A DNA stretch of 64,000 bases. Source: Planctomycetota bacterium. Its GTDB lineage: Bacteria > Planctomycetota > MHYJ01 > WSZJ01. The notes under the pieces were generated by a model. The model searched no databases. It was not told the origin of the DNA and was given only the letters and a program-made list of their open reading frames with translations. Location of the stretch: NCBI GenBank assembly GCA_038060895.1, contig JBBTCT010000007.1:100023-164022 (forward strand). Direction: 5' to 3'. The position numbers and the translations under genes were made by a program. This document shows positions 52,736-56,161 of the stretch, piece by piece (within the stretch, counting starts at the first letter, position 1; each line of letters opens with the position of its first letter).

Positions 52736-52809
52736 GGGCGGCTAGTTCAGCTGGCTAGAACGCCTGCTCGACACGCAGGAGGTCAGAGGTTCGAATCCTC
52801 TGCCGCCCA
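52736..52809 (+). tRNA. tRNA-Val(GAC)
   Basis: GGGCGGC/GCCGCCC acceptor stem, anticodon arm CCTGC-TCGACAC-GCAGG, T arm GGTTCGAATCC; no encoded CCA. Confidence 0.92.
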
Positions 52810-53097: not shown

Positions 53098-53541
53098 ATG
53101 ATGGCGGCGAACGTGCTCGATTTCGACAAGGTCAAGGAGTTCCTCGGCAAGCATCTGACAAACATCTCCGAAGCCTCAAAGGTGAAGTTTCGCGAGATCC
53201 AGAAGGCCGTGAAAAGTGAATTCGGCCAGGGGCTCTTCATGCCGAAGCTATCAGAATTGATCAAGTCAGTCCGTCCGGATCTCTCGAAGCCGGCGCGCAA
53301 GAAGGCAAAGCGGGGGCGGAAAGCCGGGAAGCGCGGGCCGGGACGGCCGCCGGGCGTGCGGCGCGCTTCGGGGTCGGGCACGTTCCTCGTGAAGCTGGGG
53401 CGCAAGCTGTCGCTGGCGAAGTCGAAGGACCGGGTGCAGGCGATCATCGACAAGATGGTGGCGGGCGGTCAGAGCCTCGGAAGGCTGAAAGTGTTCGCGC
53501 TGTCCCGGGTCGGTGTTTCGACGCGAGTCACGATCGAGTAA
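53098..53541 (+). CDS. basic hypothetical protein with AT-hook-like motif
   Basis: RBS AAGGAGG; KKAKRGRKAGKRGPGRPPG. Confidence 0.8.
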   Translation: MMAANVLDFDKVKEFLGKHLTNISEASKVKFREIQKAVKSEFGQGLFMPKLSELIKSVRPDLSKPARKKAKRGRKAGKRGPGRPPGVRRASGSGTFLVKLGRKLSLAKSKDRVQAIIDKMVAGGQSLGRLKVFALSRVGVSTRVTIE

Positions 53542-53620: not shown

Positions 53621-53649
53621 TTGACGCTTCGATTTCCCCCCGCTATCCT
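53621..53649 (+). promoter_or_regulatory. sigma70-type promoter of tRNA-Ala
   Basis: TTGACG-N17-TATCCT. Confidence 0.75.
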
Positions 53650-53674
53650 CCCGCCTCCTTCGGCGCTCCCGGAC

Positions 53675-53747
<73 letters not shown>

Positions 53748-53854
53748 TTCAGGTGCGCCGAAGGGGGATGGATCGTTCGGCGGGCCCCGGTCGATTCGTA
53801 CCCTCGGCCCCTGGCCCGGCACGGTTTTCTTGCGATTCTGACGGATGAAAGGAA

Positions 53855-53884
53855 TTGACTCCGGGCTGTCGCGCGGGGTACAAA
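53855..53884 (+). promoter_or_regulatory. candidate promoter of the coiled-coil/actin-like operon
   Basis: TTGACT-N18-TACAAA, about 30 nt upstream of ATG 53916. Confidence 0.45.
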
Positions 53885-53915
53885 AGTTCTTCCTATCCCC
53901 GGGAGATCCCAAGGT

Positions 53916-54734
53916 ATGTGGATCGTCAAGAACGTCCTGCGCGGCTCGATCATGATCGAAGACCTCAAGGTCAAGATCCCCGCCAAGGACTATTTCGACC
54001 TCGACAAAATCGGCCGGGAACGGGCCGAGCAGTCCCGCCAGCTCAAGCTGGCGATGGAGGAAGGGTACCTCCAGAACGTGAAGAAATCCGAGCCCGGCTC
54101 CAACGAAGCGGTGCTGGTGAAGGAAGAGACGCGGAGCGAGATCAAGACTCGGATCGAGGAACTCCGCCAGGTCATCCTGAAGTCGCCCGACAAGGACACG
54201 GTGATCAAGGCGCTCAACGAGCTCCGGACCGTGCTCGCGGGCTCGAAGGACGTCGAGCAGATCCGCTCCGATTTCGACGACCTGAAAAAGATGATCCAGA
54301 CGATGGACGGCGACAACGGCTGGCTCAAGAAGGAATTCGACAAGCTCCGCGCGACCTTCTTCGACAAGGAGAAGGACGAAAAGACCCTGATGAAGCGGGA
54401 AGTTCTGGAGCTGCGCAAGGCGGTGCTCGACGAGCGCCAGCGGTCCCAGGTCGTCCTCACCCAGTTCAACGAGTTCCGTGACACGCTTCTCAAGGAGTTC
54501 AAAGGCCTTCTCAGCGGCATGATCGCCGCAGGCCCGAGAATGTCGATGGGCGAAGGCGGAGACAGCGGGGCAGCGGAACGGGTGCGCCTCACCGAAGTTG
54601 AAATCAAGGCGCGCCTCAAGCTGCTCGAGTCCAAGGAAAACGAACTCACGGCAAACTTCGAGAAGATCGGCAAGGAAACCCAGGGCACGGGCGACGCTGG
54701 CGGAATGGCCGACCTGCTCGGCGGAATCGACTAA
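53916..54734 (+). CDS. coiled-coil protein with small N-terminal globular domain
   Basis: RBS AAGG; E/K/L heptad-rich body; strongly biased codons; no signal peptide or TM helix. Confidence 0.85.
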   Translation: MWIVKNVLRGSIMIEDLKVKIPAKDYFDLDKIGRERAEQSRQLKLAMEEGYLQNVKKSEPGSNEAVLVKEETRSEIKTRIEELRQVILKSPDKDTVIKALNELRTVLAGSKDVEQIRSDFDDLKKMIQTMDGDNGWLKKEFDKLRATFFDKEKDEKTLMKREVLELRKAVLDERQRSQVVLTQFNEFRDTLLKEFKGLLSGMIAAGPRMSMGEGGDSGAAERVRLTEVEIKARLKLLESKENELTANFEKIGKETQGTGDAGGMADLLGGID

Positions 54735-54812
54735 CTCACAAGGGGCCTCGCGGGGCGGCACGGCCGCTTCGCCGGGCACATTGATCACCATCTGGTAGAA
54801 AGGGGCACGGGA

Positions 54813-55910
54813 ATGTGCGCTAAGGGAGTTGACATCGGGACGTGCTTCCTCGTGGGAGCGGAGCTCAAGGACGGCAAGGAAGTCTTCACGATGGAACGTG
54901 ACGCGTTCTTCTCGATGCCCAACGAGGACTTCGCGGAAGACATGCTCACGAAGGCGGGCGCCTTCTACATCATCAAGGGCGAGCAGATCTACGTCGTCGG
55001 CGAAGACGCTCTCAAGTTCTCGATGGTGACAGGAAACCAGAAGGACTATCGCCGCCCGATGGCCAAGGGCGTGTTGAACCCCGGCGAAGAAGAGGCCATC
55101 AGCATGATGGAAGTTCTTCTCGAAGCCGTGGTGGGCAAGCCGAGTTACCCGGGCGAAGTCATCTGCGCGACGATGCCCGCGAACCCGGTCGATGCGGACT
55201 TTGACGTGACCTTCCACCGCATGGTTCTCGAGCGGTTCCTCAAGAAGCTCGGGTACGACGTCAAGTGCATCAACGAAGCGATGTGCATCATCTACAGCGA
55301 AAACCCGACCGTGACGATCAACAACGAGGTGCTGCCCTTCACGGGCATCGCGATCTCGTGGGGCGCGGGCATGGTGAACCTCGCGGCGTCCTGGCGCGCG
55401 AAGAAGCTTCTCGAGTTCAGCTGCGGCCGTTCGGGCGACTGGATCGACCGGCAGGTTGCGAAGGTGAGGAGCGTGCCGGTGTCGAAGGTGCAGAGCCACA
55501 AGGAGAAGTACCTGAACTTCGACCGCATCGACCCGACGGACCAGATCATGGTCGCGCTCGAGATTTACTACGAGGACCTGATCCGCTACGTCATCACCAG
55601 CATCGGCCAGCAGTTGAAGGCGGCCAATGCGACGATCGACGAGCCGGTCGAGATCGTGATCGCGGGCGGCACGAGCAAGCCCCCGGGGTTCGTGGACCGG
55701 TTCAAGTCCGTTCTTCGCGAACTCGGCCTGCCGATTCCGGTGAAGGGCGTGCGTCATGCGAAGGACCCGCTGAAGGCGGTTGCGGCGGGCGCTCTGATTG
55801 CGGCGATTTCGGAAGAGAAGAAGCGCAAGGCGAATGCAGCGGCGGGCGGCGACGCTCCTGCGGCGGCGCCGGCGGCTGGCAAGAAGGGCGGAGTGCCGCT
55901 GATCAGCTAG
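54813..55910 (+). CDS. volA: actin-like ATPase, volactin-like
   Basis: Phosphate-1 GVDIGT, connect-1 INEA, phosphate-2 ISWGAG, GDWID, adenosine IAGGT, connect-2 AVAAGA. Colinear with haloarchaeal volactin as I recall it (YVVG.DAL.F, RRPM..G.L, PA.P.D, IYSE, FTG). Confidence 0.85.
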   Translation: MCAKGVDIGTCFLVGAELKDGKEVFTMERDAFFSMPNEDFAEDMLTKAGAFYIIKGEQIYVVGEDALKFSMVTGNQKDYRRPMAKGVLNPGEEEAISMMEVLLEAVVGKPSYPGEVICATMPANPVDADFDVTFHRMVLERFLKKLGYDVKCINEAMCIIYSENPTVTINNEVLPFTGIAISWGAGMVNLAASWRAKKLLEFSCGRSGDWIDRQVAKVRSVPVSKVQSHKEKYLNFDRIDPTDQIMVALEIYYEDLIRYVITSIGQQLKAANATIDEPVEIVIAGGTSKPPGFVDRFKSVLRELGLPIPVKGVRHAKDPLKAVAAGALIAAISEEKKRKANAAAGGDAPAAAPAAGKKGGVPLIS

Positions 55911-55929
55911 TTTGGATACGAGTTATCGG

Positions 55930-55963
55930 AGCCGGGGGCGAGAAATCGTCCCCGGCTTTTTTT
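55930..55963 (+). terminator. intrinsic terminator
   Basis: agccgggggcga/tcgtccccggct stem followed by a T-tract. Confidence 0.85.
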
Positions 55964-55970
55964 GTAATCG

Positions 55971-56161
55971 TGCGGAGGCTGGCGAAGGCTGGCATAGGCT
56001 GCGGACGCTGGCGGAGGCTAACGACCATTGGAGCGAAGCCACCCCAGCGATAATGGCGGGCGGGCCGAGCACGGGCCCACAACGGCTCAGCGCAGCGCGT
56101 TGTTGCAACTAAGCCTCCGCCAGCCTCTGCCAGCGTTCGCCAGCCTTCGCCAGCCTCCGTA
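55971..56161. repeat. palindromic element with arms of about five degenerate 10-mers
   Basis: (ggctggcgaa)-like units at 55971-56020 and (ttcgccagcc)-like units at 56111-56161. Confidence 0.85.

Follow-up and report, generated by a model that had tools for sequence, protein, structure and literature searches.

Does a planctomycete encode a volactin-type actin, and does the gene directly ahead of it belong to the same system? These questions are raised by two adjacent genes on the forward strand of a 64,000-nucleotide stretch of contig JBBTCT010000007.1 (assembly GCA_038060895.1), hereafter the window. It comes from a metagenome-assembled genome (MAG; 5.4 Mb, 86.5% complete) of Planctomycetota, in agreement with the planctomycete-like host proposed earlier from the letters alone. 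That original prediction read the downstream gene as a bacterial volactin-like actin and the upstream gene as its coiled-coil partner. Our comparisons confirm the finding and support the volactin reading, placing the actin in a new clade of a known family.

A Volactin-family actin in Planctomycetota

The downstream gene (54813–55910, + strand, ATG start) encodes a predicted actin-like ATPase of 365 residues that matches the Pfam Volactin model PF25216 over its full length (residues 3–331 on model positions 2–321 of 321; 250.8 bits against a cut-off of 35, E = 3e-74), a match reproduced in a scan of the whole genome. Models for rival actins all remained below their cut-offs: MreB_Mbl (PF06723), FtsA, Actin and Hsp70 gave no match at E ≤ 0.1, no sugar-kinase family matched in the Pfam scan of the actin, the Pfam salactin model reached 16.5 bits against a required 27.1, and the NCBIfam models of MamK (28.5 bits, the best NCBIfam match) and salactin (22.6 bits) stayed below a cut-off of 400. 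The proposed resemblance to volactin is thereby borne out.

The phosphate 1 (DxGT), phosphate 2 (GxG) and adenosine (GG) motifs of the actin fold are present, as had been claimed, in the form of D7-G9-T10, G184-A185-G186 and G285-G286, which are invariant in an alignment of 18 sequences of the window protein's own subgroup, type A (alignment A2; types A and B are described below). D7, G9, T10, G184, G186, G285 and G286 stay invariant when type B, the archaeal and phage members and MreB are added to type A. The five motifs quoted earlier as marks of volactin, RRPM, PANPVD, IYSE, ISWGAG and GDWID, all occur in the translation, and four of them hold as such marks: PANPVD, IYSE, ISWGAGM and GDWID correspond to PADPID, IYSE, ISFGAGM and GDW(I/V)D in haloarchaeal proteins, and none is found in the MreB of the host genome. 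RPM, by contrast, also occurs in that MreB and is thus not diagnostic. Alignment with the haloarchaeal proteins further reveals a seven-residue insertion after IYSENP in type A, and after about residue 335 the actin ends in a tail rich in Ala, Pro and Lys.

A tblastn search of a plasmid collection returned five records, all of them haloarchaeal megaplasmids (Haloarcula, Natrinema and Halogeometricum). Identity to the haloarchaeal Volactin-family proteins is 38–40% over 87–91% of the query, and the three that were tested scored 437–466 bits on the Volactin model. The host genome encodes a separate MreB (G000:C9:116770–117753, 443 bits), 19% identical to the window actin, which is therefore not a substitute MreB; no tubulin/FtsZ match was found in this 86.5% complete genome. 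Single-sequence and profile searches of solved structures yielded no meaningful relative of the actin (EutJ, E = 0.046; FtsA, 0.077; actin, 0.6). At the level of sequence, these data show a member of the Volactin family with intact nucleotide-binding motifs. This assignment is not itself new, because Pfam and one NCBI record already tag such proteins: PF25216 is tagged on 120 of 120 homologues among the matches listed, and the NCBI record bears the name 'disk-shape morphogenesis protein volactin [Planctomycetota bacterium]'.

The family is common in the phylum, with 125 of the 401 genomes in an even sample matching the window actin at E ≤ 1e-20 (69 of the 243 better-quality genomes of the sample). 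Among related genomes, 22 of 41 exceeded the PF25216 cut-off, and close relatives come from Planctomycetota, Planctomycetia or Brocadiia MAGs. Two tiers of identity to the window actin are apparent: type A, at 49–100% (26 genomes, 13 families), and type B, the rest, at 33–44%. Nineteen of the 26 type-A genomes hold at least two matches and thus also carry a type-B copy; genomes of the window's genus have a single copy, of type A only. Type B is far more abundant, with 2,325 or more clusters at E ≤ 1e-30.

These tiers were placed in a maximum-likelihood tree of 65 rows (64 family members and MreB) with SH-aLRT support. It left out 10 high-scoring segment pairs running into a stop codon (L055, L075, L006, L076, L062, L080, L002, L008, L073, L065) and 13 duplicate or near-identical loci (L001, L028, L014–L017, L019–L021, L029, L030, L057, L079), and it had no MamK, ParM, FtsA, salactin or HVO_2015 rows. 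Type A forms a clade with support 100 (26 rows, including the long-branch L056, labelled B by identity alone), type B a clade with support 97 that has a huge-phage copy at its base, and the archaeal members a clade with support 87. A branch of length about 10 parts all 64 family rows from MreB, and because it is so long, the order of the three clades is not settled by the tree.

Outside Planctomycetota the family looks sporadic: one Bdellovibrionales MAG carries a copy, and it is the only one among 151 genomes of its phylum above the cut-off. Two uncultured huge phages of 485 and 595 kb also encode relatives with 30–33% identity (LR745208, L061 3001–3933; LR756511, H7), and the LR745208 protein, which scores 221 bits on the Volactin model, is the copy at the base of type B. 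Within type B, family f5 (L002–L013) has tandem genes about 1.5 kb apart, as at L012 (1501–2487 and 3011–3958), where one partner gene lies ahead of both; the duplication is old, as the copies fall into different clades. In family f66 (L065, L066, L070, L071), type-B actins lie in open frames of about 700–950 aa with no separate upstream partner detected, and may be fusions with an N-terminal extension.

An upstream partner kept beside the actin

The gene directly ahead of the actin (53916–54734, + strand, ATG start) encodes a 272-residue protein for which no Pfam or NCBIfam family rose above cut-off (window protein in both, 22 members in the Pfam scan). In the window's genus all 7 loci examined have this partner immediately ahead of the actin, at 80–93% identity and with one copy cut by a contig end. 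Of 22 type-A loci belonging to 12 other families, 21 likewise have it upstream, 20 times whole and once (L041) cut by a contig end. The gap between the two genes is 78–81 nt in same-genus loci and 12–123 nt in the other families.

Co-occurrence follows the same pattern, with a partner match in 26/26 type-A genomes compared with 3/375 of the others in the same 401 genomes; the three exceptions are two N-terminal fragments and one contig-end cut in a family that otherwise has the pair throughout. Adjacency and co-occurrence across 13 families argue against a chance pairing. The expectation that the upstream gene is kept beside actin homologues holds for the window's own clade and fails in type B and in archaea, where the upstream partners differ.

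A scan of metagenomes with four distant partner sequences gave three short contigs, of which only L082 extends past the partner. There, 45 nt beyond a distant partner relative, an open reading frame (ORF; 55 residues visible) matches the N-terminus of the volactin-family profile at E = 6.6e-5, compared with E = 22 for the N-terminus of the host MreB against the same decoy background.

The partner has two conserved ends. Its N-terminal domain of about 57 residues, the MWIVKN domain of type-A partners, has W2, N6, D28, L29, D30, R34, A46, G50, L52 and K57 invariant (alignment A1, n = 22). At the other end, a conserved helix, ELxKNFExxG, is followed by an acidic tail that ends in ADLLSxL, and in ...ADLLGGID in the window. 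The helical middle is variable and expanded in the window's genus, giving 272 aa as opposed to mostly 184–212 aa elsewhere. 'Soluble coiled-coil', as the protein had been described, is right in its first half, since neither the window partner nor the other type-A partners collected have a transmembrane (TM)-like segment. The second half is only partly so: sub-threshold matches are to coiled-coil families, and heptad periodicity beats 95% of shuffles only at about residues 110–148.

To see the extent of the partner family, 1.84 billion representatives had to be searched exhaustively with its profile, as a word-index search with the same profile found just 14 proteins. The exhaustive search recovered 275 clusters at E ≤ 1e-3, of which 95 reach ≤ 1e-10 and 30 reach ≤ 1e-30; the majority are full-length matches of 170–240 aa, and distant members retain both ends (15 inspected out of 146 sequences). 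Among solved structures only generic helical bundles matched the partner, and the one partner match in a protein atlas, at 0.82, is at chance level by the atlas calibration.

In many other families (L034–L037, L045, L047), a protein of ~240–270 aa with sub-threshold tetratricopeptide repeat (TPR) matches is encoded directly upstream of the partner, and the unit may comprise three genes there. We rejected the TPR-like gene as part of the unit in the window's genome, as one query did not find it in that 86.5% complete assembly.

Type-B actins also follow a same-strand gene, whose product of 128–799 aa ends in an ESN...VxVK...GxVxxxLxKLKxLxGG module. A profile built from 13 such tails recovers seven further frames (E = 3e-14 to 4e-6; L054 and L079 are the same place) and has no match in the phage stretch L061. 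In all three haloarchaeal volactin loci the gene ahead of the actin, on the same strand, encodes a protein of ~300 aa belonging to DUF7139 (PF23600), at L058 2920–3828, L059 2977–3900 and L060 2797–3696. This protein has three or four TM-like segments and, in its acidic tail, the motif VDxAVxGL(R/K)xLxGG. None of the 22 type-A partners matches PF23600. A same-strand upstream partner is therefore a layout common to type A, type B and haloarchaeal volactins.

The authors of the volactin study suspected unknown binding factors, according to the available text of PMC10869688. Our data suggest the DUF7139 neighbour, for which no mention was found in the literature searched, as possibly such a factor in Haloferax, and make it a candidate membrane anchor for the tips of volactin filaments.

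The locus and its neighbourhood

Both ORFs, of 272 and 365 aa, are present in the ORF list and its translations where they had been reported, on the + strand and with 78 nt between them. This spacer (54735–54812) contains a purine-rich GAAAGGGG stretch 8–15 nt 5' of the actin ATG, and no terminator-like site was found in it on the + strand. Eighteen nucleotides past the actin stop lies an intrinsic terminator (55928–55966, + strand) with a 14-bp stem, including 9 G-C pairs, a 4-nt loop and a T-run, the stem-loop and T-run being located at 55928–55959, in line with the strong terminator described earlier.

The candidate promoter, TTGACT-N18-TACAAA (53855–53884, + strand), was read by eye about 30 nt 5' of the partner ATG. 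When the 200 nt upstream of this ATG were aligned for the window's genus, the cores TTGAC and TACAA were invariant in 7 of 7 sequences, and the DNA farther upstream diverged and was unrelated in several of them. Because the cores are invariant while the DNA beyond them differs, we take them as the probable footprint of a dedicated promoter. A consensus promoter scanner did not report this site; its only sigma-70-like match upstream, at 53621–53649, is ahead of tRNA-Ala, not of the pair.

G+C content at third codon positions is 0.864 and 0.869 for the two genes, inside the range of 0.73–0.89 for seven neighbouring genes, so the codon bias is host-like, as proposed. A 704-aa antisense open frame spanning both genes (53643–55757, − strand) is read as a by-product of the high G+C and strong third-position bias of the coding strand. 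Relatives differ from the window mainly at third codon positions; in the actin gene, these make up 34 of the 38 places listed.

Upstream of the pair lie tRNA-Val (52736–52809), a basic ORF of 147 aa and tRNA-Ala (53675–53747). The 147-aa ORF (53098–53541, + strand) is rich in Lys and Arg, carries a GRKAGKRGPGRPPG stretch and matched no Pfam or NCBIfam family. The family scan identified an RNase D-like exonuclease and an LPG_synthase_TM protein among the neighbours, and ABC-transporter-like genes were also recognised nearby by eye from their translations, without a family scan. The lack of an mreCD, ftsZ, mam, plasmid or phage context was confirmed, in that none of the neighbours tested is of mre, fts, mam, plasmid or phage type.

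Small shares of the stretch (0.07–0.16) are contained in 24 metatranscriptome runs from 14 studies. Four of these runs were aligned: contigs in X3, X4 and X6 cover parts of both genes, and X1 has one 393-nt piece identical to the window, within the actin gene. No contig from these four runs covers 54572–54733 or bridges both genes. Expression is only hinted at by these data, as the contigs stem from RNA libraries that may contain DNA.

Function and comparison with known systems

What might such a pair do? We consider it probable that the two genes form a chromosomal module, with a promoter and a terminator of its own, that encodes a Volactin-family filament-forming ATPase together with a helical adaptor or regulator. 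The adaptor or regulator reading is favoured because the partner is co-inherited with the actin and has two conserved ends joined by a variable helical spacer. Polymerisation, physical binding, which partner end binds what and the cellular role we infer as follows.

By homology with Haloferax volactin, whose dynamic filaments extend across the cytoplasm and contact the membrane at their tips (available text of PMC10869688), the type-A actin would form ATP-dependent dynamic cytoplasmic filaments. The soluble, largely helical partner would act on these as an adaptor or regulator. The actin would be contacted by one of its conserved ends, which may be the ~57-aa N-terminal domain or the amphipathic, acidic peptide at the C-terminus, and a cellular target by the other, with the variable helical middle serving as a spacer or dimeriser. 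The cellular role would presumably concern shape or the organisation of the cell interior, and not division in general.

A wider proposal, which we put forward tentatively and hold to be doubtful at present, is that haloarchaea and Planctomycetota share an old cassette of upstream partner and volactin. A short amphipathic C-terminal peptide of the partner would dock on the filament, and the rest would have been swapped from lineage to lineage, between the 4-TM DUF7139 membrane anchor of haloarchaea, the long helical proteins of type B and the MWIVKN-domain protein of type A. In planctomycetes without FtsZ, the filaments of such a cassette might organise cell shape or internal membranes.

Several observations weigh against these proposals. 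With an identity of only 38–40% to archaeal volactins, the window actin may differ from them in function. No match to it was found in several of the families sampled most heavily (f17, 0/20; f26, 0/23; f18, 0/12), and for this reason a volactin-type actin cannot be the general division machinery of the phylum. The partner lacks a recognisable domain, and its coiled-coil periodicity is significant only within the short segment given above. The pairing is also imperfect, since L039 is without an adjacent partner (in its genome, G278, a divergent copy lies on a different contig) and L056 (genome G063), inside the type-A clade, has no partner match, so that counting it gives 26/27. Moreover, related genomes are not independent samples, though 13 families are involved. 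With regard to the shared cassette, the type-B tail profile is weak against type-A partners (E = 0.086–7) and DUF7139 (E = 0.65), and alignment of the tails with hhalign gave P = 0.0064 for A-B, in the expected register, 0.03 for B-archaeal and 0.13 for A-archaeal. Homology of the three kinds of tail is a lead only.

An actin fold does not by itself imply a filament, as the ASKHA superfamily, to which the fold belongs, has non-filament members. The window protein could instead be a non-polymerising ATPase, chaperone or kinase-like enzyme, with the partner as its cofactor or substrate; the literature searched holds no polymerisation data for any bacterial member, and profile matches to solved structures are marginal only, one of them being the EutJ match noted above. 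We judge this unlikely in view of the full-length match to a family founded on a protein that assembles into filaments in vivo (available text of PMC10869688), the lack of any sugar-kinase or Hsp70 family match, and the paired conserved adaptor, which is typical of cytomotive actins.

The layout of an actin and a small adaptor would also suit a ParMRC-like segregation cassette, in which the actin moves DNA and a ParR-like partner binds a centromere N-terminally and the filament C-terminally. The centromere parC has two sets of iterons, and just downstream of the pair, 3' of the terminator and 5' of the next gene, lie two inverted arrays of a 10-nt unit (55972–56019 and 56112–56159), with about five copies each of GCGGAGGCTG and its complement and a core of ~92 nt between them. 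Additionally, volactin dynamics have been likened to those of ParM, and salactin, a relative, helps to partition DNA (both from the available text of PMC10869688).

However, the two-unit pattern is dispersed, with 44 matches in its own genome, on many contigs, against 3 for a reversed-pattern control; because of this we regard the arrays as a dispersed REP/MITE-like element (repetitive extragenic palindrome or miniature inverted-repeat transposable element). At exact match, the unit occurs only in loci of its own genome and in none of the related pair-bearing loci, and a centromere role for the arrays was rejected on both grounds. No repeat array is found upstream of the partner, and the adaptor-first gene order is the reverse of parM-parR, in which the actin comes first and the adaptor second. 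The partner has no DNA-binding family above cut-off. The context is chromosomal, with housekeeping-type neighbours and tRNAs and a single copy per genome in the genus, and plasmid-collection matches to the actin are confined to the five haloarchaeal megaplasmid records. A segregation cassette is thus improbable.

It is very improbable that the upstream protein is alpha-helical pore-forming-toxin-like, or an unrelated helical protein whose pairing has no functional meaning: although one NCBI record names a partial homologue (P0131) 'alpha-helical pore-forming toxin family protein', the NCBIfam NheC model gives 23 bits and Pfam Bacillus_HBL matches 1 of 22 members (E = 0.0093), the NheC score is far below its cut-off of 420, the matches fall in residues 68–144, a genus-specific helical insert missing from the partners of other families, no TM-like segment was found, and the strict pairing with this actin clade, in both adjacency and co-occurrence, in 13 families speaks against chance.

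The module of filament-forming ATPase and adaptor thus remains our preferred reading, and it offers a concrete candidate for a non-MreB, non-FtsZ cytoskeleton in Planctomycetota, a phylum of unusual cell biology. Volactin is treated as a haloarchaeal protein in the available text of the literature searched, yet it is common in one bacterial phylum, where two clades each have their own conserved upstream partner family, neither with a Pfam model. Bacterial volactins are not described in the searched text of PMC10869688 (supplements outside the search), PMC12050087 and PMC12186497, and planctomycetes are not mentioned in the available part of the salactin paper. A literature search for actin homologues of planctomycetes returned a Uabimicrobium lokiactin homologue, saltatorellin (10.1101/817700) and MamK/Mad28 papers. 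The partner families, their strict pairing with the actin, the clade structure and the cross-domain layout appear undescribed in print.

Compared with known systems, the window actin shares the common actin fold and an RPMxxG motif with MreB, from which it differs in its lack of a PF06723 match, its low identity and a very long branch in the tree. ParM and ParR of plasmid R1 similarly combine an actin-like ATPase with a small adaptor encoded beside it, a likeness of mechanism only: no sequence relation to the window pair was detected, and the window differs in its chromosomal context, its opposite gene order and its lack of a locus-specific centromere. Saltatorellin, a MamK-like protein of Saltatorellota, is, like the window actin, a non-MreB actin homologue in Planctomycetota or a related lineage, and is reported to form filaments in E. 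coli (available text of 10.1101/817700). We set the two side by side by description only; MamK is also the best NCBIfam match of the window actin, far below cut-off, and the name saltatorellin is absent among the 120 type-B matches listed.

Type B is closer, belonging to the same Pfam family and phylum and having an upstream partner as well, and differs in its 33–44% identity, its separate clade (support 97) and partners with a different conserved C-terminal module. The volactin VolA of Haloferax volcanii (HVO_2015) is of the same family, PF25216, and shares nucleotide-binding and family motifs with the window actin, a comparison made via the Haloarcula, Natrinema and Halogeometricum megaplasmid copies (38–40% identity) and not HVO_2015 itself. 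The disk-shape role of volactin cannot be transferred to the window actin, which unlike haloarchaeal volactins has a bacterial host, a separate clade and the seven-residue insertion after IYSENP. Like them, it has a same-strand gene directly upstream, whose product is soluble and helical in type A and, in haloarchaea, a DUF7139 protein with three or four TM-like segments.

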